Assembly: GCF_043235035.1 (NCBI RefSeq)
Contig: NZ_JAZAQF010000042.1
Coordinates: 90,909 to 114,908, forward strand
Length of the DNA: 24,000 bases
Direction: 5' to 3'
From: Limnothrix redekei LRLZ20PSL1
Lineage (GTDB): Bacteria > Cyanobacteriota > Cyanobacteriia > CACIAM-69d
Position 1 is the stretch's first letter; each line of letters begins with the position of its first letter. Below, in pieces: positions 5,335-23,873 of this stretch. The notes under the pieces are model-generated. The model saw only the letters and a list, made by a program, of their open reading frames with translations. It made no database searches and was not told where the DNA came from. A program made the translations under genes and the position numbers.

Positions 5335-5991
5335 TTACCGCCGGTTTAGCCACAGGGCCCGCAGCCCCGCCGCTGTGGCCCCTTGGTAGTCATCCTCCAA
5401 GCTGTCGCCAATGTGCCAAGCGGCCGCCGGTTCACAGCCATGCTGGGCCAGGGCCGCAACAAACACGGCGCGATCGGGCTTGGCGGCTCCCACCTCCGTC
5501 GAGAGGGTGAAACTCTTGAAATAGCGCGTCAAGTCCAACACATCCAACACGCGATAAAGCCGCGTATCAAAATTTGAGAGAATTCCCAGCTCAATGCCCA
5601 GCCGCTGCCACTTGGCTAAGGTGTCATGCACTTCTGGATACACATACCAAGGGGCCGCCGTGGCAAAGCGATCGTAAAGCGCTGCGAAATAGTCCGCGAA
5701 ATCCGGAATTTCGGAAAATAATTCCGCTTGCGTAAACGTTTGTTCTGCCAGACTTTCCCACCATTGATATTCCAGGTAGGGTAATTGATCGCGATCAACC
5801 CCTGGAAAAACACAAGGATCTGCCGCCTTAAAGCAATCGTAAAAGGCTTGATTCAAGGCTTGATCATCGAGTTGCAACCCAAAGAGTTGATTCGCCATTT
5901 GGGCATATTGCTGACCCACACTTTCCGCCACGCCAAATAGCGTTCCCACGGCATCGAGAAAAATCACTTGAGGATAGTTTTTTTGATTCAT
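5335..5991 (-). CDS. HAD-superfamily hydrolase (subfamily IA-like)
   Basis: [11 protein letters not shown] (DxxGT motif I), ILSNFD (motif II) and [13 protein letters not shown] (motif IV). The track start at 6000 is GTG. ATG at 5991 (MNQKNYPQ...) is more likely. Confidence 0.8.
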
Positions 5992-6028
5992 GAGCTGCAC
6001 AATATTTTGGATGAATTCTCATTCTAAA

Positions 6029-6118
6029 TTGTTCGATTGAGTATTATTTAATTGAGTGTTGTTTGATTAAATATTGTTTGATTGAGTATTGTTCGATTGG
6101 ACGCTGTTCGATCGCGCC
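6029..6118. repeat. Degenerate 15-bp tandem array, about 6 units (consensus TTGTTYGATTGAGTA)
   Basis: Units are ttgttcgattgagta / ttatttaattgagtg / ttgtttgattaaata / ttgtttgattgagta / ttgttcgattggacg / ctgttcgatcgcgcc. The array spans the stop codon of the lipid kinase gene (tail ...NSVQSNNTQSNNI) and runs into the intergenic region upstream of the HAD gene. Confidence 0.8.
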
Positions 6119-6999
6119 GCTGGCACAAAAACATTCAGTTGAGCGGGCAGCACTCGAAATTCAGCGGGCGTGGTGGTTGATAGTTCCCCATCAGTGTTGA
6201 TGGACTTGGGGCGACTGGTAATGATTTTTAGGGATGTGGCCTCGATCGTCCGCACATTCACACAATCATTGAGACGACCGGCGTGCATTGCAGGCAAAAG
6301 CGGCAACATTTGCCACCAATGGGCAATTTCCAGGCTGTATAAATCTAACCGTTGATCATCAATGGAAGCATCCCAAGCCACGCTTAAGCCGCCACCATAA
6401 TAGCGACCATTGCCCACCGCAATTTGCACCGTTTTGACCGTCAGCAGTTCACCATTCACTTCAATTTTTGCGGTAAAAGGACGCGATTTCCAAAGGGCTT
6501 GGATTGCAGTGATCGCGTAGGCAAACACACCCCATCGCTTTTTGATTTCACCGCTCAATTGGCGAGTGATGCTGACACTTAACCCCAGGCTGGCCACATT
6601 GAAAAAATAGCGATCGTTCACTTGCCCCACATCGATCGCCTTGGTTACCCCTTGGGCCACCACTGCGCAGGCCTGTTTCAAGTCTGCCGGAATTGCCAAC
6701 GTGCGCGCCAGGTCGTTGGCGGTTCCCAGGGGCAAAATGCCGAGGGGCAACCGGGTTTCGATCAAGGCTGGCAGGGCCGCATTCAGGGTTCCGTCACCGC
6801 CGCCAATAATCACACAATCGATCCGGCTGGCATATTGCCGAATCAGATCGCGAAAATCGCTCGATCGCTTGGTGCTGCGGAAAATTAGCTCGAACCCCAT
6901 TTCATCCAAAATGGCGATCGCCCGGCCGAGCAGTTGCCGCCCTCGGCGCGATTTGGAATTCACTAGCAGCAAGGCCCGCTGAGGAGCAACGGAGTCCAT
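6067..6999 (-). CDS. Lipid kinase, diacylglycerol-kinase catalytic domain family (YegS/BmrU-like)
   Basis: 310 aa, ATG at 6999. Motifs LLVNSKSRRG, VIIGGGDGTLN and LGILPLGTANDLAR are hallmarks of the DAGK catalytic domain. Confidence 0.8.
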   Translation of the reverse strand: MDSVAPQRALLLVNSKSRRGRQLLGRAIAILDEMGFELIFRSTKRSSDFRDLIRQYASRIDCVIIGGGDGTLNAALPALIETRLPLGILPLGTANDLARTLAIPADLKQACAVVAQGVTKAIDVGQVNDRYFFNVASLGLSVSITRQLSGEIKKRWGVFAYAITAIQALWKSRPFTAKIEVNGELLTVKTVQIAVGNGRYYGGGLSVAWDASIDDQRLDLYSLEIAHWWQMLPLLPAMHAGRLNDCVNVRTIEATSLKIITSRPKSINTDGELSTTTPAEFRVLPAQLNVFVPAARSNSVQSNNTQSNNI

Positions 7000-7024
7000 A
7001 ATGCACCCGCGATCTAAAAAGGAA

Positions 7025-7044
7025 AACGGTTTCTAACGGTTTCT
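7025..7044. repeat. 10-bp perfect tandem duplication (AACGGTTTCT x2) in a divergent promoter region
   Basis: 7025-7034 and 7035-7044 are identical. They lie between the kinase start (6999, minus) and the cupin start (7187, plus). Confidence 0.85.
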
Positions 7045-7186
7045 ATTGTGCCATTGCCGCCCCCACTGTTTGGACAGGGCGATCGCGATGGGGCATTCTT
7101 TGTGAAGCAAGGGCCGCTAAACTCCTAGGCTAAAACTGGAGAATCGATCGATTCACATCCCTTGCGCGATCGCGCCCAGCAACTCC

Positions 7187-7657
7187 ATGGAACCTAACCC
7201 GATTACGGCCAACAATGTGCCCGCCCAGCGTGGCCAAACCATCTATCCATCACCCTATGACGCGGTGGTTAAGGGTCGATTAAAGCGAAAATTGGGCGAT
7301 TACTTTCAATTGTCAAACTTTGGGGTGAATTTAACCGAACTTGCGCCCGGTTCCGCGTCGGCTCTTGCCCATTGTCACTCCAAACAAGATGAATTTATTT
7401 TTGTTTTGGCGGGAACGCTCACTCTCATTGTGGGCGATCGGGAATTTGAGTTGCATGCCGGTGATTGCTACGGCTTCAAGGCGGGAACTGGCATTGCCCA
7501 TCAACTGATCAATCGATCGCCTGAAGATGCGGTTTATTTGGAAGTGGGCGATCGCACGGCGGGCGATGAAGTGACTTATCCGAACGATGATTTAAAAGCT
7601 TGTCAACAAGTAGATGGCTCTTGGGCTATCTATCATCGAGATGGTCAACCCTATTGA
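7187..7657 (+). CDS. Cupin-domain protein
   Basis: 156 aa. HCHSKQDEFIFVLAGTLTL...HAGDCYGFKAGTGIAHQLIN fits the two-motif cupin beta-barrel pattern. The region contains HIP1, so it looks native. Confidence 0.7.
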   Translation: MEPNPITANNVPAQRGQTIYPSPYDAVVKGRLKRKLGDYFQLSNFGVNLTELAPGSASALAHCHSKQDEFIFVLAGTLTLIVGDREFELHAGDCYGFKAGTGIAHQLINRSPEDAVYLEVGDRTAGDEVTYPNDDLKACQQVDGSWAIYHRDGQPY

Positions 7658-7702: not shown

Positions 7703-8062
7703 ATGCTGACTCAATCCCAGGCCCAGGAATTTGCGCAAGAGTGGGTGGCGGCTTGGAATAGCCACGACCTCGATCGCATTTTGAGCCACTACGAGGAAGA
7801 TGTGGTGTTGATTTCCCCGATCGCGGCTCGGCTCTTGGGTGACCCGACGGGAAGGGTACAAGGAAAAGCTGCCCTTCGTCGCTATTTCCAAAAGGGGTTG
7901 GAAGTCTATCCCAATCTCAAGTTTGAGCTGTTGGATGTGATGTGGGGTATTGAAAGTTTGGTGCTTTACTACATCAATCAACAGGGCACGCAGTCGGGTG
8001 AGTTGATGAAACTCAACAGCACGGGCAAGGTCTCCCAGGTGATCGCTCACTATAATAGTTAG
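7703..8062 (+). CDS. SnoaL-like / NTF2-fold protein
   Basis: AQEFAQEWVAAWNSHDLDRILSHYEEDVVLISP is a typical NTF2-like N-terminus. ATG 7703 has GAGGA about 9 nt upstream. The track start is ATG 7688. Confidence 0.6.
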   Translation: MLTQSQAQEFAQEWVAAWNSHDLDRILSHYEEDVVLISPIAARLLGDPTGRVQGKAALRRYFQKGLEVYPNLKFELLDVMWGIESLVLYYINQQGTQSGELMKLNSTGKVSQVIAHYNS

Positions 8063-8069
8063 GGAGTCC

Positions 8070-8107
8070 TGTTAGATCGGTCAGCCGCAGGCATGATCGA
8101 TCTAACA
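8070..8107 (+). terminator. Putative hairpin after the SnoaL-like gene, at the left edge of the AT-rich islet
   Basis: TGTTAGATCG (8070-8079) pairs with CGATCTAACA (8098-8107). That is a 10-bp perfect stem with an 18-nt loop. There is no U-tract, so terminator function is uncertain. Confidence 0.4.
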
Positions 8108-8141
8108 AGATCCATCAAATCATTGATTTTCATTACAGATC

Positions 8142-10211
8142 ATGACTTCAGATAATAGCTCAAAAGGTGCTAACGCTCATATTGAAGAATATTTGGATTA
8201 TTATTGCAACCTTTCTAATCCTAAGTTTGCCGTGTTATTGAAGGGTTCATGGGGTTCAGGAAAAACATGGCTAATCAAAAAATTTATGAAGGATTTTCAA
8301 GCCAGAAAAGATTCTGGCCTCTCGAAGAGTCCTTGGAAAGCAGTAAAAATGTGGTTAGCCGGAAACGTTCTGCGGCATTTTAAGCTTAAAAAAACTTCTA
8401 ATTTATCATCAAGAAATACTTATTTTTTATATGTCAGTCTATATGGAATGCAGACATTAGAGGAAATTGAGCGCGAGTTTTTAAGGCAGTTGCATCCTGT
8501 ACTGGGATCGCATGAAGTAGAGTTCTTAGCTAAATCTATTAGCACAGTTATACCATTGCATCTGAATTCATTTTTAGATAACCTCAGGGTAAAGTCAGGG
8601 TTGACACTGAAAAATCTTCCTGGATATCTCAAAAATGTGGGTCAAAGAATCTTAGTCTTTGATGATCTAGAGCGTTGTCATGTGAACATAAATTATGTTC
8701 TGGGTTACGTCAATAGTTTCGTTGAGCATAAGTCTGCCAGGGTTATCATAATAGCAAATGAAGAAGAATTGCATCAAAGCTATGGCGATGAAAGTCAGAA
8801 TCAAGAACGCAAGCATCAATATAAATGTATAAAAGAAAAAATCATTGGACAAACTCTTGAAGTCAAATTTAGTTTTCAAGAAACCATTGAATCCTTAATG
8901 AGAGATTTATGTAAATATGAACTAATAAAAAATGAAGAAATAGAATTTTTCATCAAAAGCCAAAGTGAAACTATCGAAATAATATATCAACATGCAGAGT
9001 ACAAAAATATTCGTACTTTGAGAAAAATCATATTGGACTTTAATCGTATTTGGGTATCTTTGCCAGCCAATGTCATTCAAAAAGAAGAAGCCATTCAAGA
9101 AATTTTTAAATTATTAATAATATTTTCAATTGAAATTTCTCTGGGAAATATAGATTTTATAGACCTTGCTAAAATTTGCGATCAATATGAAAAATTTCAC
9201 ATGCAGAAAAGAATGTCATCAGGTTCACATGAACCAAAGACAAAAATTCATAAACTAATTAAAAAATATAATTTTCTTCATCAAACTCTCTCTTATGGAA
9301 ATAATCTATTTCCAATTGATAGTTGGTGGGTAGAATTCCTTGGCAAGAGCACTCTTAATCAAGAATATCTTAATGACTCGATAAAAAGGAGTCGGTACTT
9401 TAGAGATGAGACAACTCCTGCTTGGTTAAAACTTTACTCCTATCAGGAACTTCAAGATTATGAATTTTCTCAAATTCTACAAGAAGTAGAAGATCAGTTT
9501 TTGGAACAAAAAATTCATGATCTCGGCGAAGCTATCTATATCTTTGGAGTAATTCTAGAGCTGTCTAATCATAATTTAACAGATATATCATTACAAGATC
9601 TTCAAAATTCCATGATCAGTTTTATAGATAAATCTAGAGAGAATGGATGCTTCTTAGATTTTGCAAGATGTTTTACGAGTGGAGATTTTGAACGACTCGG
9701 CTTGAGTATTCGAGGAAAGAGCCATGATGGGTTTAGAGAAATTGATGAATACATCACTCAGTGCAAAAAAAAAGATGAAGAGATTTTCTTCAAAAAGAGT
9801 GCTGAAGAACTTTTAGAAATGATGATTTCGCAAAACAACGAATTTCACTCGCAGCTCATTGCATTTATTAAAACAATAGAAAATCCTTCATCAACAGCTT
9901 ATCGCAGTGTTCCTATTTTAAAATATATAGATACACAAGAATTTACAATTGCTTTTGTATCCCTACCTCCATTGGAACAATCAAAAGTTCTTAATACAAT
10001 TATTAAAAGACACGACAATGACCGACATTCAGAACTTTTGCGTGAAGAGTATGAATGGATAGAGAAAGTTATAACATCTCTCAAGAACGAACAAGAGAAG
10101 AGACAAAAAGACAGGCTTTTGAGTGGCTTATTACTTTCTGAAGTGATCGAGAATTTTGAAAAAAATATTGAAATATTAATTTCTTTTCAGCAAGGAAAGC
10201 CGAGCCTATAG
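8142..10211 (+). CDS. KAP-family P-loop NTPase, soluble, with an uncharacterised ~350-aa helical C-terminal region
   Basis: 689 aa, ATG at 8142. Walker A is GSWGSGKT (aa 35-42, nt 8244-8267). Walker B is ILVFDDLERC (aa 170-179, DD at nt 8661-8666). VIIIANEEEL and KEKIIGQTLEV follow, in KAP-typical order and wording. The insert between Walker A and B has no hydrophobic 20-mer. Confidence 0.85.
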   Translation: MTSDNSSKGANAHIEEYLDYYCNLSNPKFAVLLKGSWGSGKTWLIKKFMKDFQARKDSGLSKSPWKAVKMWLAGNVLRHFKLKKTSNLSSRNTYFLYVSLYGMQTLEEIEREFLRQLHPVLGSHEVEFLAKSISTVIPLHLNSFLDNLRVKSGLTLKNLPGYLKNVGQRILVFDDLERCHVNINYVLGYVNSFVEHKSARVIIIANEEELHQSYGDESQNQERKHQYKCIKEKIIGQTLEVKFSFQETIESLMRDLCKYELIKNEEIEFFIKSQSETIEIIYQHAEYKNIRTLRKIILDFNRIWVSLPANVIQKEEAIQEIFKLLIIFSIEISLGNIDFIDLAKICDQYEKFHMQKRMSSGSHEPKTKIHKLIKKYNFLHQTLSYGNNLFPIDSWWVEFLGKSTLNQEYLNDSIKRSRYFRDETTPAWLKLYSYQELQDYEFSQILQEVEDQFLEQKIHDLGEAIYIFGVILELSNHNLTDISLQDLQNSMISFIDKSRENGCFLDFARCFTSGDFERLGLSIRGKSHDGFREIDEYITQCKKKDEEIFFKKSAEELLEMMISQNNEFHSQLIAFIKTIENPSSTAYRSVPILKYIDTQEFTIAFVSLPPLEQSKVLNTIIKRHDNDRHSELLREEYEWIEKVITSLKNEQEKRQKDRLLSGLLLSEVIENFEKNIEILISFQQGKPSL

Positions 10212-10688
10212 GCAATGAATTTCTTGGAAGGTAGCAGCTTGCCCGTAGGGTTGACCCGCTTCATCGACTAGGTTCCAAATCAGCCCATCGAGGATCCGAA
10301 ATCGACGACCCGTTTTGGAAATTCGCACCCCTTGATAGTTGCTGATATAGCCCCGATCGGCTGCTTCTGCTAACATTTTGGCTCGCTCTTCGCGGGCGAT
10401 CGGCTCGGCACTCAACCGAGATGGTAATTGCACAAACTCATCCCAACTGAATTCCCACAACTCGATCGCCCGTTGGTTGGCATAGTTAAAAATCGGGTCG
10501 GCTTCCGTGCCGTGGGACACCACCACAAAAGGCGCGTGAAAAATCTGACGTGATCGCTCGATCGGGTCGAGATCCGCCGGTAAATCCCCCAGCGATCGCC
10601 CCACCACCTGCTGGAAACTGACCCAGAGGCGATCGACATGGCGCACCACCGCCGGATCCTGCCAAATTTCGATCACCCGATCGCTCAC
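10206..10688 (-). CDS. MEKHLA-domain protein (PAS-like)
   Basis: APFVVVSHGTEADPIFNYANQRAIELWEFSWDEFVQLPSRLSAEP...GYISNYQGVRISKTGRRFRILDGLIWNLVDEAGQPYGQAATF matches the MEKHLA domain pattern. The start is probably GTG at 10688, overlapping the trhO stop (GTGA). The track's longer form (GTG 10766) overlaps trhO by 82 bp. Confidence 0.75.
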   Translation of the reverse strand: MSDRVIEIWQDPAVVRHVDRLWVSFQQVVGRSLGDLPADLDPIERSRQIFHAPFVVVSHGTEADPIFNYANQRAIELWEFSWDEFVQLPSRLSAEPIAREERAKMLAEAADRGYISNYQGVRISKTGRRFRILDGLIWNLVDEAGQPYGQAATFQEIHCL

Positions 10689-12135: not shown

Positions 12136-12717
12136 TTAAGGAGCAGTTAAAAAGCAAGCAGAATCATACAATCGAGAGCGGATTAGCTTGATGAGTAGTT
12201 GCTGATATCGAGTGACATAAGAAGCACCTTGAAATTCCTCAAAGACTGAAAAATGAGGCTCCTTGATTGAAACTTGTCGATGAGCAGCTTCAGCATCTTC
12301 AAGCAAAAGAAAATAGCCTAACCAGGGACGTGGTGAAGGATAGAATGCTCCTTTTTCGTAGGCATTCCATAGATCAGTTGCACTACCCAACGCTTCTTCA
12401 GTTCGGTTGTTAAAATTATTCCCAAAAGACCCAACCTGGGATTTAAATTCAATTGCAGCAACTAACCGATGATTGATAATCACTAATAAGTCCCAACTTT
12501 TTTCCGCACGAAACCACCCTGGCAGCTCTGTATCTTGTTTCCAGTAAATGCAACTCTCCTCAACGCCAGCCGTGATTAAGAGGCTAGCAACTAATTCACG
12601 AAAATCATCAAGATGCTTTCCTGAACGAACTGCTTGAGCAGACTCAGAGCGTATTTGCCAAAACCGTTGAACAGCAGCAGCCAGCCTAGTATCCAGATCT
12701 TGGAGTACATTTTGCAT
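12136..12717 (-). CDS. Type II restriction endonuclease, PD-(D/E)XK fold (XhoI/PaeR7I-like by recollection)
   Basis: 193 aa, ATG at 12717. WDLLVIINHRLVAAIEFKSQVGSFGNNFNNRTEEALGSATD contains a D...E-x-K catalytic arrangement. The FGNNFNNRTEEA block is what I associate with the XhoI/PaeR7I family, but I have not verified this by search. It sits directly downstream of a DNA methyltransferase gene. Confidence 0.7.
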   Translation of the reverse strand: MQNVLQDLDTRLAAAVQRFWQIRSESAQAVRSGKHLDDFRELVASLLITAGVEESCIYWKQDTELPGWFRAEKSWDLLVIINHRLVAAIEFKSQVGSFGNNFNNRTEEALGSATDLWNAYEKGAFYPSPRPWLGYFLLLEDAEAAHRQVSIKEPHFSVFEEFQGASYVTRYQQLLIKLIRSRLYDSACFLTAP

Positions 12718-12750
12718 TTCAGTTATTTTTAAACACTAAGATTTTAGTGA

Positions 12751-13760
12751 TTAGCGATCAGAATGCAGCATCACCGTAGTTTTGCTGAACAGGCTCGTTA
12801 GTTCCTGGGCTAAACGGTCATAGGATTGTTTTAGGTATGTGGGGTCAATTTCATAGCCAATGCTATTGCGTCCACACTGAGCAGCCGCGAGGGATGTTGT
12901 TCCTGTGCCAGAAAAAGGTCAAGCACCACATCACCCACAAACGAGAACATTTTAATTAATCTTGTGGCTAATTCTAGGGGATAAGGAGCAGGATGATGAC
13001 GTGTTGATGCACCTGGAATATCACTCCAGATTTGTTGAAACCAAGTGCGGTGATCTGTTTCTGGAATAATACTCAATAATTTAGTTGTTAAGTTCACTTT
13101 TCGATATCCCCCTGGCTTACGCTGCATCAAAATAAATTCAATATCGTTTTTGATAATTCCGTTGGGTTCATAGGGTTTACCCATAAAAATCGTGCCATTT
13201 CCCTTTGATTCTAGGGAAGCGTTGGCGATTTTGTGCCAAATAATGGAAGAAAGATTGTCGAAGCCAATTGTTCTGCAACTTTCTTGAATGGAAGCATGAA
13301 GAGGGAATACGGAATGGCGGCCGTTATTTTTCCGTCGAGATAAGCAAACATCACCCACAACGCAAATTAATCGACCACCGGGAGCGAGTAGTTGAAAGCA
13401 CTGCTCCCAAACTAAATTGAGTTCATGAATAAATTGATCATAATCGTCAATTTCTCCCATCTGTCCTTGAATTGAGTTGTAAGACTTTAGGTTCCAATAG
13501 GGCGGCGAAGTCAGAATGAGATGGACACTTTCGGGTGGAAGATTCAGGCTTGTTCGGGCATCAGCCAGATGAAGATGATGTTCACTAGGCCAATCAGCAA
13601 CCTGCTCTTGGATGAGCTGCATGAGCCGAGTGTCTTTCGCAATTCTGGGAATTGCAGTCTGAATATTACTCAAATCGCCAAGGGCTGATAGCAAGGTGCT
13701 AGTTAGTTTTGGCTGCTCTTCCAAGGCATTGAAAGGGCTGGTGACCGGAGCGGAGATCAT
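12751..13760 (-). pseudogene. Beta-class N4-cytosine/N6-adenine DNA methyltransferase, disrupted by a 1-nt frameshift in motif I
   Basis: ATG at 13760 (MISAPVTSPF...). Motif IV is LILTSPPYWNLKSY, and HPAPYPLELATRLIKMFSFVGDVVLD follows. At 12911-12920 the frame breaks. The current frame reads LFLAQEQHPS... and stops at 12831. The frame entered by restoring 1 nt reads FSGTGTTSLAAAQCGRNSIGYEIDPTYLKQSYDRLAQEL... and stops at 12751-12753. Confidence 0.8.
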
Positions 13761-13768
13761 GTTAGTAC

Positions 13769-14248
13769 CTAACTCAAATCCAGCAAGTCGAAAAAGGACT
13801 CGTCTAGGTCGTAGCCCAGCATTTGCGCCATGCCCTGAAGCCGCGATCGCGTGCCAATTCCTTGGGTTTTCAGCCAGTTGGCTAATACAAAAATCTTGCC
13901 CATCACGAATAGTTCCAAGGCTTCGGGATTGAACTGAATTCCGTCGGTGGGATGGAATTGGTGGGGAACCAGCATGGCCGCATAGCGACCGAGTTCGCCT
14001 GCTTTCCAGTCCAAAACAAAGGGTAACCAAGGATAAACCGCGTCTGCCCGCAGAAACCAAAGCCGCACTTCGGGAATTTCCGACAGCTCGCGGGGGTCGG
14101 TGGGGTCGCGGGGCAGGTCAATGGTGAGTTGCACTTGTTGTTCGGCGGCGGCAATGCCACTGGCCAAGAGCGGCTCGATCGCCCGTTGGATGGGGCTGAG
14201 GTCTAGGTTTTGGAGATGATCCGCTGCGATCGAAATGGTGATTGTCAT
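13769..14248 (-). CDS. CRR6-like protein (chlororespiratory reduction 6 / NDH-1 assembly factor family)
   Basis: DPRELSEIPEVRLWFLRADAVYPWLPFVLDWKAGELGRYAAMLVPHQF...GIQFNPEALELFVMGKIF...MAQMLGYDLD matches my recollection of the CRR6 (former DUF1817) family. ATG at 14248 (MTITISIAADHL) is preferred over the track's TTG at 14269. Confidence 0.6.
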   Translation of the reverse strand: MTITISIAADHLQNLDLSPIQRAIEPLLASGIAAAEQQVQLTIDLPRDPTDPRELSEIPEVRLWFLRADAVYPWLPFVLDWKAGELGRYAAMLVPHQFHPTDGIQFNPEALELFVMGKIFVLANWLKTQGIGTRSRLQGMAQMLGYDLDESFFDLLDLS

Positions 14249-21149: not shown

Positions 21150-23873
21150 TCATTGTCCACTGTCATTGCCAGTCAATGGGCCACGAACTACTAAAATTGT
21201 GCCTTGAAATTGCTGGGCGATCGTGGCCGGCAAGTTGCCATGAATGACCTGTTTGAGTAGGCTTTCTCGGCTGGCTCCTAACACAATCACTTGGCTATCT
21301 AGGCTTTCGGCCAAGTGCAAAATGGTTTCAGCCACCTGATCCGCACAGAGAGCCAGCGCCGTGACTGAAGTGGGGCTGGTTTTGGTGAGGCGAGCGGTGG
21401 CCTGATCCAAAAGATCGGTCGTCCAGGGTTGCGCCGCCGATTCGCTGAAGTCTGGTTCCTCACTGGTGGCCACCTTGGGCACGACTTGGCAGAGGGTGAC
21501 GGCGGCCGATCGGGTCAGACCCAACAGCGGCGGCAACAGGTTCAGGGCCCGCTCCACATTGGGCCCACCACTAATCGGCACTAACCAGCGATCGAGACTG
21601 AGCATGGCTTGCACCGCCTCTTGCTGACGGATTCGCGGCCGTTTGAATAGGTCTTCTCCCCATTTCACCAACATGATTTCGCAGGGGGCATCGTTTAACA
21701 GTCGGGCGATCGAGTCGCCAAAAACCGGCAATCCCGGCCGGGCGATCGCCCCTTGCCAACCCATAATCACCAAGTCGATTCGCCGCCGTTGAATCACTTC
21801 CAAAATGGCTTCGGCCGGATCCCGGGCCAAGCAAATTTGGCTATGGATGGGGATGTGCCATTGGCGGCCGGCGCGGGTTGCCCGTTCAAACAGTTTGCGC
21901 ATGGGGGCCACCAGTGCCGGATCGATCGAGGTTTCCGCCGGGGACTGACCCAAAGGAACCAACATCACATGCAAGCATTCCACCTCCGCCTGTCGATCGC
22001 GCGCGATGGCCAGCGCCAACCGCAACAGCCCCAAGGCCGCCGCTGGATTGGCGATCGGCACCAAAATTCGTGATCGCCCCGTGTTGGGCCCCCGGGTTTT
22101 ATAGATGGCATAGGCGGGCCGGCGCGGCTGCTGGGGATTAATTTCTCCCCCCAGTCGTTTGGACTCAACGCGCAACAGATCGCTACGCGTGACAATGCCC
22201 ACCAGCCTTTGCCCTTCCAACACGGGCAGTCGTCCCAGTTTGTAGCGACTGAGCAAAAAGCGAATATCCGACAGCCGATCGTCAATTTGCACCGCGATCG
22301 GCTGGGGAGTCATGGCCGCCGTCACCCGATCGGTGGCGGCCAAATCCTCGGCATCCAAATCCGTGATGTCCGATTGGGTCAAAATGCCCACCAAATTTCC
22401 CCGATCGTCCACCACCGGAAAACCGCGATGGTGAGAATCGGCAAACCGTTGGCGGGCCGTTTCCAGGGTTTGGCTGGCCCGCAGGGTTTCCACCGGATGA
22501 TTCATCACATCCTTGGCTGTTAAATCCGCTAGCAAATCCACATCGGGAATAGGTTCCGACTCCAACCCCTTGAGGGCCAGCAGTCGATCGTATAAAGAGC
22601 CAGAATCCAGGCGATCGGCCACTAAATAGGCCACCGTGGAACCAATGGTGAGCGGTAACACCAAGTTAAAATCCGCCGCCATTTCAAACACAATCGCGAT
22701 CGCCGTGATTGGTACCCGCGACACCGCCGCAAAAAATGCCCCCATCCCGGCCAGAGCGTAGGTGGCGATCGAGGGGGCCCCCACGAGGGCCCCCACCACG
22801 CTGCCCAAGGCAGCTCCTAAAATCAGCGAAGGACCAAACAAGCCCCCCGGCGCACCGGAACCAAAGGCCACCAAAGTCAACAGGAAATGGGCCCCAAAGG
22901 CGATCGCCGCACCCTGCCAAGCCGTCCCCCCCAACACCAAATCTTCCCGCAGCCAGCTATAGTTCCAAAACGCCGCTGGCAACATCGCCATACCCAGGCC
23001 CGTAATTCCACCAGCCAGGGCCATCCGCTCCGGCAACCCCCATTGCAACCGGCGATAAAGACCCAAGCTGGCAATCACCCCCCGATTGAAATTGGCTCCC
23101 AACCAGCCGGCCAACAAACCCAACAACAGATAGGCCGGAATATCCCGTGCCGTAAATTCCGTGGCCACCCGCGATAGGTTCAAGCTCACGGGCAAAATAT
23201 CACCGCCCAAGGACTGTGCCACCACCGCTCCCACAAAGGCCGCCAACAGAGCCGGCCCCAGGGTCAAACCCGATACATCATGCAGCAGCTCTTCCACCGC
23301 AAACAGCACACCCGCGATCGGGGCATTAAACCCAGCCGCCAAACCAGCAGCGGCCCCAGCGGCAATTGTTTGGCGACGATAGGCCGGCGAAGTGGGAATC
23401 CAGCGACTGAGTTGGGCCGCGATGGAAGCGCCCACATGCACCGTGGGCCCCTGACGACCCAGGGTTAACCCAGACCCCAAGGTGAGCGTGGTGGCCAATA
23501 ATTTGACCCAGACGGCCCGCCAATCCAGCAGGATCGGCCCAAAGGCCAGCTTGGCCTTGACTTGCGGAATGCCACTGCCCCCAGCGTCCGGCGAAAAGCG
23601 CTGCACCAACCAACCAGCCAGCCAACAACCCACCACCCCCACCGCCGCCAACGCCAGGGCCGGCACGGGGCTACGGGTGGCGATCGCGATCCGCTGGGTT
23701 CCCACCCAAGCGGCCCCCCACTTCATCAACACAGCCGCCAACCCAGCAATTAGCCCGATCGTGCAAGACTCCAGCAGGGCCAAGGTCTTGGGACGCATGA
23801 ATGGCCGTACCCACCGCAGGGGATGCCATTGCTCGCCAAAGGGGTTATAGCGGCGATACCAATCGTTTGCCAC
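21150..23873 (-). CDS. ClC-family chloride channel/transporter fused to a CBS pair and two USP-like domains
   Basis: 907 aa. ClC selectivity motifs GSGIPQV, GRQGPTVH and GAPGGLFGPSL. Two CBS-like segments follow (DVMNHPVETL...GFPVVDDRGNLVGILTQSDI; ...LGRLPVLEGQRLVGIVTRSDLL), then two USP-like alpha/beta modules (RILVPIANP...DLVIMGW; RWLVPISGGPN...VIVLGASRE). The track start at 23873 is GTG. The first ATG is at 23798. Confidence 0.9.
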   Translation of the reverse strand: MANDWYRRYNPFGEQWHPLRWVRPFMRPKTLALLESCTIGLIAGLAAVLMKWGAAWVGTQRIAIATRSPVPALALAAVGVVGCWLAGWLVQRFSPDAGGSGIPQVKAKLAFGPILLDWRAVWVKLLATTLTLGSGLTLGRQGPTVHVGASIAAQLSRWIPTSPAYRRQTIAAGAAAGLAAGFNAPIAGVLFAVEELLHDVSGLTLGPALLAAFVGAVVAQSLGGDILPVSLNLSRVATEFTARDIPAYLLLGLLAGWLGANFNRGVIASLGLYRRLQWGLPERMALAGGITGLGMAMLPAAFWNYSWLREDLVLGGTAWQGAAIAFGAHFLLTLVAFGSGAPGGLFGPSLILGAALGSVVGALVGAPSIATYALAGMGAFFAAVSRVPITAIAIVFEMAADFNLVLPLTIGSTVAYLVADRLDSGSLYDRLLALKGLESEPIPDVDLLADLTAKDVMNHPVETLRASQTLETARQRFADSHHRGFPVVDDRGNLVGILTQSDITDLDAEDLAATDRVTAAMTPQPIAVQIDDRLSDIRFLLSRYKLGRLPVLEGQRLVGIVTRSDLLRVESKRLGGEINPQQPRRPAYAIYKTRGPNTGRSRILVPIANPAAALGLLRLALAIARDRQAEVECLHVMLVPLGQSPAETSIDPALVAPMRKLFERATRAGRQWHIPIHSQICLARDPAEAILEVIQRRRIDLVIMGWQGAIARPGLPVFGDSIARLLNDAPCEIMLVKWGEDLFKRPRIRQQEAVQAMLSLDRWLVPISGGPNVERALNLLPPLLGLTRSAAVTLCQVVPKVATSEEPDFSESAAQPWTTDLLDQATARLTKTSPTSVTALALCADQVAETILHLAESLDSQVIVLGASRESLLKQVIHGNLPATIAQQFQGTILVVRGPLTGNDSGQ

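Follow-up and report, generated by a model that had tools for sequence, protein, structure and literature searches.

This report concerns a single gene in a stretch of 24,000 nucleotides from Limnothrix redekei LRLZ20PSL1 (contig NZ_JAZAQF010000042.1, positions 90,909 to 114,908 of the forward strand). The whole stretch is called the window throughout, and coordinates given without a contig name are counted from its first letter. The gene encodes a KAP-family P-loop NTPase, labelled by NCBI as a P-loop NTPase fold protein, and is found in the gene order cupin, SnoaL, KAP, MEKHLA, UPF0176 rhodanese and D-Tyr-tRNA deacylase (DTD). Its ATG lies 79 bp past the stop codon of the SnoaL gene (8060-8062), and its own stop codon (10209-10211) overlaps the stop codon (10206-10208) of the MEKHLA gene, which runs convergently. 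Given the base composition of the open reading frame (ORF), stop codons are expected at about 7.6% of random codons, so that the chance of finding 689 open codons in a row is about 1e-24.

8142-10211, plus strand: KAP-family NTPase gene, a 689-amino-acid (aa) ORF with an ATG start, predicted soluble P-loop NTPase, PADLOC candidate PDC-S49

The composition of the gene sets it apart from everything around it. Its G+C content is 0.324, and 0.268 at third codon positions (GC3), compared to a G+C content of 0.532 for the window and to values of 0.49-0.61 (GC3 0.46-0.73) for the neighbouring genes. The HIP1 motif (GCGATCGC) occurs 35 times in the window, where 0.5 copies are expected, and a scan of the window found no copy between 7555 and 10592. 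As the density in the window predicts about three copies in the ORF (Poisson P(0) about 0.05), this absence is only mildly significant when taken alone. Promoter and terminator scans around the gene gave scores no better than those of shuffled sequence. No flanking repeats, integrase or transposase were found at the locus, and a transposon or integrative element was rejected on these grounds. A first-pass annotation, made from the sequence alone, had described an uninterrupted ORF of 689 aa at this place, on an AT-rich islet unlike its backbone, free of HIP1 and with no partner gene. All of this could be confirmed, the last point by the 79-bp gap upstream, by the overlapping stop codons and by neighbours that differ across hosts.

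Domain architecture and family membership

The protein is made up of an N-terminal NTPase half and a long helical C-terminal half, with the following features:

8181-9047, plus strand: KAP NTPase domain (aa 14-302), Pfam PF07693, E = 8.6e-19
8244-8267, plus strand: Walker A motif GSWGSGKT (aa 35-42), from the sequence; G35, W37, G38, G40, K41 and T42 invariant in 55 homologues
8301-8411, plus strand: allele-specific insertion (about aa 54-90), a gap or shorter in other alleles, hydrophilic, 0-36% nucleotide identity to any allele
8649-8678, plus strand: Walker B motif ILVFDDLERC (aa 170-179), from the sequence; D174, D175, E177 and R178 invariant in the 55 homologues
9132-10208, plus strand: all-helical C-terminal domain (aa 331-689), separate AlphaFold2 model with pLDDT 83.4; proposed specificity or sensor module

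The match to PF07693 scores 68.3 bits against a cut-off of 20 and covers profile positions 5-288 of 293. Two further motifs, VIIIANEEEL (aa 201-210) and KEKIIGQTLEV (aa 231-241), follow in the order of the KAP family; translation places these and both Walker motifs at the residues given for them in the first-pass annotation. The catalytic residues of Walker A and Walker B are also invariant across six alleles of the locus, which are described below. The best 19-residue Kyte-Doolittle window scores 1.67 and includes Glu and Asp, and the longest run without charged or strongly polar residues is 11 in the window protein and at most 14 across the family of 55 sequences. A membrane protein was thus rejected, as neither hydropathy nor polar-residue runs leave a plausible helix. 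By profile and motifs the window protein belongs to the KAP family, minus the membrane helices of its classical members, and it is predicted to be soluble, which agrees with the earlier proposal of a soluble KAP-type NTPase without a membrane insertion.

Within this family, the closest match is to PDC-S49, 1 of 145 phage defence candidates (PDCs) in PADLOC (PADLOC-DB v2) that were predicted by guilt-by-embedding, from genes embedded in BREX, DISARM and type I restriction-modification (R-M) systems (Payne et al., bioRxiv 10.1101/2024.01.29.577857). The PDC-S49 profile PDLC05031 aligns aa 8-676 with positions 3-613 of 624 (E = 2.9e-154), and the profiles PDLC05029 (E = 4e-133) and PDLC05030 (E = 5e-77) match as well. 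No other PADLOC model, including PifA and QatA, matches the window protein at E <= 1. All alleles and distant homologues that were tested match PDC-S49 at E-values of 1e-145 to 1e-249, and none of them matches PifA or QatA. There is also a full-length match to phrog_4740, a family of the PHROG database with a function-less label (E = 6.9e-77). By every sequence criterion tested, the window protein is classed as a member of PDC-S49. The first-pass annotation had called it an uncharacterised variant, a view that a clear hit to a described family of the same architecture would speak against. The architecture is indeed already catalogued and the match runs over the full length, although PDC-S49 is itself only a candidate.

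An AlphaFold2 model of the full protein, built with 55 homologues as input, reached a pLDDT of 81.7 and a pTM of 0.70 and presents the N-terminal half as an α/β P-loop domain followed by helices. Two loops of low confidence, aa 74-90 and aa 124-162, both lie between Walker A and Walker B; the allele-specific insertion sits between the Walker A helix and the next strand, with pLDDT below 50 at aa 74-90. A Foldseek search with the NTPase gave AAA+-type proteins as the best solved matches, among them ORC/Cdc6 subunits, the heptameric RdrA of RADAR and clamp loaders (E 9e-4 to 1e-2), and a search against viral structures gave the same generic AAA+-type picture.

The C-terminal half is of a different kind. 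A Pfam scan of aa 331-689 found no family, and Foldseek against the PDB found no significant match (best E = 0.18, TM-score below 0.2), only noise from tetratricopeptide repeat (TPR), 14-3-3 and designed helical-repeat proteins. Sequence and profile searches of PDB chains likewise returned only P-loop noise, which leaves this half of the protein with no solved relative in that collection. The earlier statement that it carries no recognisable effector motif therefore stands. When the C-terminal half alone was used as a phmmer query against 1.84 billion representative proteins, 817 relatives were found. Walker A is present in the first 120 residues of 91 of the 93 newly found matches of at least 580 aa, and among the full-length matches listed the query aligns at roughly residues 260-720. 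The domain is thus matched only behind a KAP NTPase, which implies that it is exclusive to this NTPase family and is not an effector module shared with others.

Two further candidates were tried and rejected. Two-gene variants with a free-standing C-terminal domain were discarded, as the short matches that were checked turned out to be the same gene in split or truncated form. A HEPN-like Rx4-6H motif in RHDNDRH (aa 623-629) was dropped because even within the set of six alleles its second His varies. As a separate observation, the contig L226 (3043-4951) carries a split family member in two overlapping ORFs, a KAP NTPase of 326 aa and a C-terminal part of 316 aa; this copy adjoins a Y1 transposase fragment and reflects either the frameshift of a pseudogene or an error of long-read assembly.

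The same slot in related genomes

Five other Limnothrix-type contigs (L001, L004, L006, L007 and L008) have a homologue in the same slot between SnoaL and MEKHLA, and the order cupin-SnoaL-KAP-MEKHLA-rhodanese is shared at all six loci. In a search of 5.8 billion proteins, the proteins from these five contigs are the closest relatives of the window protein, with identities of 43-55% by BLASTP and 46-59% by global alignment. The next relatives, from outside the slot, show 33-36% identity across the whole protein and 21-27% across its C-terminal half. On sequence comparison the slot alleles are placed in a clade of their own, each closest to the others. This implies that the gene pool of the lineage itself was the source of the diversity, rather than recurrent import of sequences from distant taxa. 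Each of the six alleles is an intact ORF with a G+C content of 0.32-0.34 and has no HIP1, those of L001 and L004 included.

The divergence of these alleles is out of proportion to that of the genes around them. Among the window, L004, L006, L007 and L008, the flanking proteins are about 91-99% identical, with dS (synonymous divergence) of 0.04-0.33 and dN (non-synonymous divergence) of 0.003-0.04; L001 is the most distant, at 80-98% identity. The KAP proteins, compared over all pairs of alleles, are 46-64% identical, the exception being the pair L004-L008 at 84%. At the nucleotide level, the proportion of differing synonymous sites (pS) between KAP alleles is 0.55-0.68, which is saturated, and dN is 0.23-0.46; for L004-L008 the values are 0.31 and 0.08. 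The contrast is clearest between the window and L006, in which the cupin and SnoaL genes have a dS of about 0.055, as if the left flank came from almost the same strain, and the KAP proteins differ at 45% of residues. The KAP alleles are, by these divergences, far older than their flanks.

The divergence is also unevenly distributed along the protein. Mean identity between alleles falls from 87% at aa 1-53 to 63% in the NTPase core and 45-49% in the C-terminal half; the window allele is 83-92% identical to the others at aa 1-53 and 37-42% at aa 401-689. Across the six alleles, the dN/dS ratio of the KAP gene is 0.16-0.37 in all regions, and the gene is under purifying selection.

There are also related genomes in which the gene is missing. 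In L009, the complete genome of Limnothrix sp. BL-A-16 (CP166615.1), the flanks are 92-98% identical at the protein level and the KAP gene is absent; about 250 bp of unrelated filler (6481-6735) lies between SnoaL and MEKHLA instead. In L010 (Oscillatoriales cyanobacterium PH2015_14S, RDXB01000055.1), the flanks are conserved as well, and cupin, SnoaL and KAP are missing together. The first-pass annotation had proposed a search of related cyanobacteria for an empty site where the SnoaL-like gene abuts the MEKHLA gene. A KAP-less slot does exist in L009, with the filler in it, and on the five contigs named above the slot is occupied. A metagenome scan with a SnoaL probe retrieved nearly only distant soil homologues and added no alleles. 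Two details of the KAP-less loci are recorded here for their own sake. The L009 filler holds a perfect 28-nt palindrome, GTAGGGGCGTACGGCCGTACGCCCCTAC, and may stem from a deletion or from a small mobile or repeat element, and in L010 (about 5980-7442) MEKHLA directly adjoins the diacylglycerol kinase (DAGK) gene.

Mosaic structure and borders of the cassette

The window allele was compared with the other alleles by nucleotide identity in 60-nt sliding windows, which gave the following picture:

8063-8141, plus strand: leader of the cassette, 79 bp, with a strong hairpin at about 8063-8113, directly after the SnoaL stop codon
8475-9129, plus strand: mosaic part of the NTPase half, in which successive segments are near-identical to different alleles
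8061-8211: mosaic segment closest to L004, 95-98% nucleotide identity
8475-8685: mosaic segment closest to L001, 90-95% nucleotide identity
8715-8775: mosaic segment closest to L004, 92% nucleotide identity
8835-9099: mosaic segment closest to L008, 88-98% nucleotide identity
9336-10200, plus strand: most divergent stretch, 33-68% nucleotide identity to every allele, with no sampled allele alike
10206-10225, no strand assigned: right cassette border at the overlap of the KAP and MEKHLA stop codons; identity is back at the level of the flank at about 10218, in the last MEKHLA codons

In the mosaic windows of 8475-9099, the alleles other than the closest one are 30-80% identical. The synteny in the same slot, the deep divergence and this mosaicism imply a long-standing polymorphic locus and not a recent foreign insertion. 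The locus is a polymorphic accessory locus, at which ancient, recombining alleles exist side by side with a null state. The first-pass description of a horizontally acquired islet is therefore right as regards the foreign composition; a recent one-off insertion does not agree with five homologues in the same slot, saturated divergence and recombination.

The left border coincides with an unusual structure. By RNA folding, the leader hairpin has an energy of -32.7 kcal/mol (z = -5.1), and none of 200 shuffled sequences folds as well. The hairpin is kept in all six alleles, with one compensatory change of G-C to A-U, and its loop is reverse-complemented between groups of alleles (TCAGCCGCAGGCATGA vs TCATGCCYRCTGCTGA). 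It sits on the left recombination breakpoint and is absent from the KAP-less L009. Its role could be that of a terminator, of a regulatory element or of a site for recombination. On the right side, the C-terminal tail of MEKHLA differs between the window and L009.

The flanks of L001 (and of L002 and L003) are themselves mosaic: DAGK and cupin have a dS of about 1.2-1.3 relative to the window, rhodanese and DTD one of about 0.19. Recombination between diverged lineages consequently reaches beyond the KAP gene.

Homologues in other hosts

Relatives of the gene are frequent in cyanobacteria, and others come from Aeromonas and Methylococcales. Homologues are present on 31 plasmids from many phyla and on 53 viral contigs of IMG/VR. 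One of the latter (L107) represents a P2-like prophage, with genes for an integrase, gpA, gpD, gpU and a sheath; the homologue is carried there as cargo on the opposite strand, between the replication module and gpD on the tail side. This position was the reason for rejecting an assignment of the L107 homologue to the P2 gpA-gpQ defence hotspot (Rousset et al.). In Limnothrix, Aeromonas, Scytonema, Trichormus and the P2-like prophage the KAP gene stands alone, and its neighbours are wholly different from one to the next; the Trichormus homologue adjoins MazEF.

The low G+C content is a property of the whole family. Its members have 31-34% G+C in hosts of 41% to 63% G+C (L005, which is Aeromonas hydrophila, L142 and L143), and in Aeromonas (L005, 10001-11896) the gene has a G+C content of 0.335 vs 0.631 for the flanks. 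This independence of the host suggests either a compositional constraint or exchange via an AT-rich mobile gene pool. In Limnothrix the low G+C content persists despite long residence in the slot.

Proposed function and rival explanations

The reading that we prefer, with a probability of roughly 0.6, is that the product of the gene is a cytosolic anti-phage NTPase consisting of one polypeptide, which belongs to the PDC-S49 branch of the KAP family and bears a specificity domain at its C-terminus. A defence role had already been proposed in the first-pass annotation, and it is the reading best supported by the full-length match to PDC-S49, the carriage of relatives by a prophage and by plasmids, and the presence or absence of the gene in close relatives. 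Here we infer anti-phage activity, the sensor role of the C-terminal domain, oligomerisation and the type of output. In the proposed mechanism, the conserved N-terminal KAP/AAA+-like P-loop domain would act as an ATP-driven switch or motor, and the helical, family-specific C-terminal half would be a specificity module that recognises a phage-encoded component. Exclusive to the family and the site of most of the divergence between alleles, this half is the foremost candidate for phage recognition. Recognition would be linked with the binding or hydrolysis of nucleotide, probably also with self-assembly, and would lead to a block of phage replication. Since there is no separate effector fold, the output would most likely be the NTPase assembly itself, which might remodel or sequester a phage protein or nucleic acid, or consume nucleotide; a host pathway triggered in trans is a less likely output. 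At the level of the population, the locus would behave as an immune-receptor-like allelic series, with old alleles and a null state in one slot that are reshuffled by homologous recombination.

Several points weigh against this interpretation. PDCs are described as untested candidates by those who proposed them (Payne et al., bioRxiv 10.1101/2024.01.29.577857), and our literature search found PDC-S49 named in no paper and no phenotype published for it. The window gene is not embedded in a defence system, and several of its homologues stand alone among housekeeping genes. The matches to ring-ATPase folds are weak, with TM-scores of 0.2-0.3, and the likeness of the C-terminal domain to TPR sensors is not significant (E >= 0.18). 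No effector, trigger or oligomer has been demonstrated. The comparison of alleles rests on six of them, and with dN/dS below 1 the direct signature of positive selection is absent, though this test has little power because synonymous sites are saturated.

Of the other explanations, a foreign single-gene islet that was recently acquired in this strain by a one-off insertion is what the composition of the gene would first bring to mind, with its G+C content of 0.32 vs 0.53, its GC3 of 0.27 and its lack of HIP1. A family that is AT-rich in every host (0.335 vs 0.631 in Aeromonas) and one complete Limnothrix genome without the gene fit this idea as well. It is nevertheless improbable and is largely refuted by synteny: on five related contigs the identical position is taken by a homologue, preceded by the same leader hairpin, the alleles are mutually closest, with saturated synonymous sites unlike the flanks and with exchange of segments, and there are no flanking repeats, integrase or transposase. 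A somewhat better chance, though still a small one, can be given to a selfish or mobile-element maintenance gene (for superinfection exclusion, addiction or a partition-like NTPase) that became stranded in the chromosome. The carriage by a prophage and by plasmids, the membership in a PHROG family, the AT-rich composition everywhere and the MazEF neighbour in Trichormus would all be expected of such a gene. The Limnothrix slot, on the other hand, is chromosomal and stable with no mobile-element genes around it, and there is no conserved antitoxin-like partner. As superinfection exclusion is itself a form of anti-phage defence, this explanation overlaps with the defence role that we prefer.

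It is similarly doubtful that the protein is a non-defence cellular NTPase for signalling or assembly, roles of the kind first proposed for KAP proteins, that evolves fast under relaxed constraint; guilt-by-embedding would then have given a false positive with PDC-S49. That family is only a candidate, many homologues are found among housekeeping genes and the protein has no effector domain; yet the gene is dispensable, being absent in L009 and L010, and relaxed constraint fails to explain saturated synonymous divergence beside near-identical flanks. It also leaves dN/dS values of 0.16-0.37, invariant catalytic residues and the carriage by a prophage and plasmids unexplained. By far the least probable explanation is a dedicated diversification by a diversity-generating retroelement (DGR) or local hypermutation, in place of old alleles and recombination. 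That idea has some attraction in that the C-terminal half is the most variable part, and DGR-targeted putative antigen-sensor proteins are reported from cyanobacteria in a paper with a mention of KAP NTPases (10.1101/2023.09.22.558884). Against it, there is no template/variable repeat pair and no repeat of at least 30 nt that touches 8142-10211, no reverse transcriptase is found in the roughly 12 kb read around the gene, and the divergence extends over about 1 kb or more, at synonymous as well as non-synonymous sites. Long tracts that match different alleles at 90-98% identity bear, moreover, the signature of recombination. A DGR target was thus rejected, in the absence of template/variable repeats and with a divergence that is not confined to a short tract.

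If the gene is an anti-phage NTPase, its population structure invites a further comparison. Plant NLR loci are known for comparable allelic series with variable recognition domains. We speculate, as a tentative and rather doubtful extension, that the PDC-S49 locus is a bacterial counterpart of such a series, in which the C-terminal domain would be a receptor that binds phage directly. Frequency-dependent selection would keep anciently diverged specificities and a null allele in the one slot, intragenic recombination would combine them anew with a shared NTPase engine, and the NTPase assembly would be the effector. If true, this would be a new output mechanism that needs no nuclease, TIR, Sir2, protease or pore domain.

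The gene itself does not count as a discovery, since PDC-S49 was already listed among defence candidates. What is new is the population structure, in which intact alleles with differences at about half of their residues are found on chromosomal backgrounds that are nearly identical. This pattern offers evolutionary support, independent of gene neighbourhood, for an involvement of PDC-S49 in an arms race, and it points to the C-terminal domain as the specificity determinant. The allelic series, together with the hypervariability of the C-terminal half, makes the question of specificity directly testable, since it is a natural series for domain swaps. A soluble single-gene family with natural specificity variants would also be convenient for learning how KAP defence without an effector stops phages.

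A second variable slot and other features of the window

The KAP slot is not the only variable one in this region. A second slot, listed here as context only, lies between the DTD gene and Crr6:

12136-14060, minus strand: second variable slot, with an XhoI-family endonuclease at 12136-12717 and an N6/N4 methylase within the ORF 12831-14060

The two genes form a type II-like R-M pair (Pfam XhoI, E = 2.3e-65; N6_N4_Mtase, E = 2.5e-22) with G+C contents of 0.39-0.45. The R-M genes noticed nearby in the first pass are thus real and lie 1.9 kb downstream of the KAP gene. The same XhoI/methylase pair is found in L007 (9787-11517); L004 has nothing in the slot, and L001 has different genes there. 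The region therefore has two polymorphic slots, one with an R-M system and one with a defence candidate, within 6 kb of otherwise conserved housekeeping genes.

Elsewhere in the window, a 15-nt unit is repeated in about six tandem copies (6021-6110) over the 3' end of the diacylglycerol-kinase-like gene, where it codes for a SNSVQSNNTQSNNI tail and runs on into the intergenic region. The AT skew is unusually strong, at +0.35 to +0.38, in GC-rich DNA at 1001-1500 and 22501-23500; the latter segment falls inside a 907-aa ORF (21150-23873, minus strand).

Comparison with known systems

The window protein is like PDC-S49 from end to end: both are single genes of about 620-690 aa with a two-part architecture and no conserved partner. 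There is no architectural difference between them; within the family, the Limnothrix alleles stand apart as a divergent sub-clade, at 33-36% identity to the rest.

QatA also has a KAP-type NTPase domain and is part of the validated anti-phage system QatABCD. The window protein does not match the QatA profile at E <= 1, and QatB, QatC and QatD are absent beside all loci examined. With the STAND/Avs proteins, the NLR-type NTPases and RdrA, the protein shares the logic of placing a helical domain, which could sense a trigger, behind a P-loop switch. It differs from STAND and NACHT proteins in that the NACHT (13.6 bits vs a cut-off of 26.7) and AAA_16 (14.2 vs 32.6) profiles fall short and that there is no effector domain. 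RADAR differs in that no RdrB partner is found at the window locus, and the fold match to RdrA is weak. By Foldseek, the C-terminal domain could not be recognised as a TPR, leucine-rich repeat (LRR) or WD40 array (best E = 0.18).

The P in KAP stands for PifA, which is encoded by the F plasmid of E. coli. This KAP protein is described as having no membrane helices, and it excludes T7 (PMC13001434). The likeness is one of architecture only: a KAP NTPase of about 740 aa, free of membrane helices, with a long, domain-less C-terminal region, which is the sole structural gene for exclusion. PifA may also work in a similar way, by sensing a phage protein and then responding in an NTPase-dependent manner. 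The sequence similarity to the window protein is confined to Walker A (38 residues in BLASTP), and hhalign of the family profile against PifA gives a probability of 41% over 36 columns around the same motif. PADLOC groups PifA with QatA and PDC-S20, apart from PDC-S49, and PifA scores 2.9e-290 on its own profile. The upstream regions differ too, as the F plasmid has the pifC repressor directly upstream of pifA and the window has the SnoaL gene and the hairpin instead. Judged by these comparisons, the window protein is not assigned to PifA.

A class of KAP NTPases with C-terminal regions of unknown function, comprising EF_KAP and three metagenomic proteins, gives single-gene protection against phages in E. 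faecalis (PLoS Biol 2026, PMC13552941). Protection is lost upon mutation of Walker B or deletion of the C-terminal region, and EF_KAP, the one KAP protein examined for abortive infection, protects equally at low and high multiplicity of infection (PMC13552941), which implies that it is not abortive. The first-pass annotation had mentioned abortive infection and had stated that the protein fits neither known architecture. Nothing in the present data points to an abortive mechanism, and the statement on architecture overlooked both PifA, with its lack of membrane helices (PMC13001434), and this class of KAP proteins with unknown regions (PMC13552941). Compared by description only, the EF_KAP class and the window protein are alike in that a single polypeptide has a KAP NTPase at the N-terminus and, behind it, more than 300 aa of C-terminal sequence with no known domain or fold. 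They differ in that EF_KAP is modelled with two membrane helices, and the window protein and its family have none. By this analogy, the EF_KAP class appears to be the closest experimentally validated concept for the window protein.

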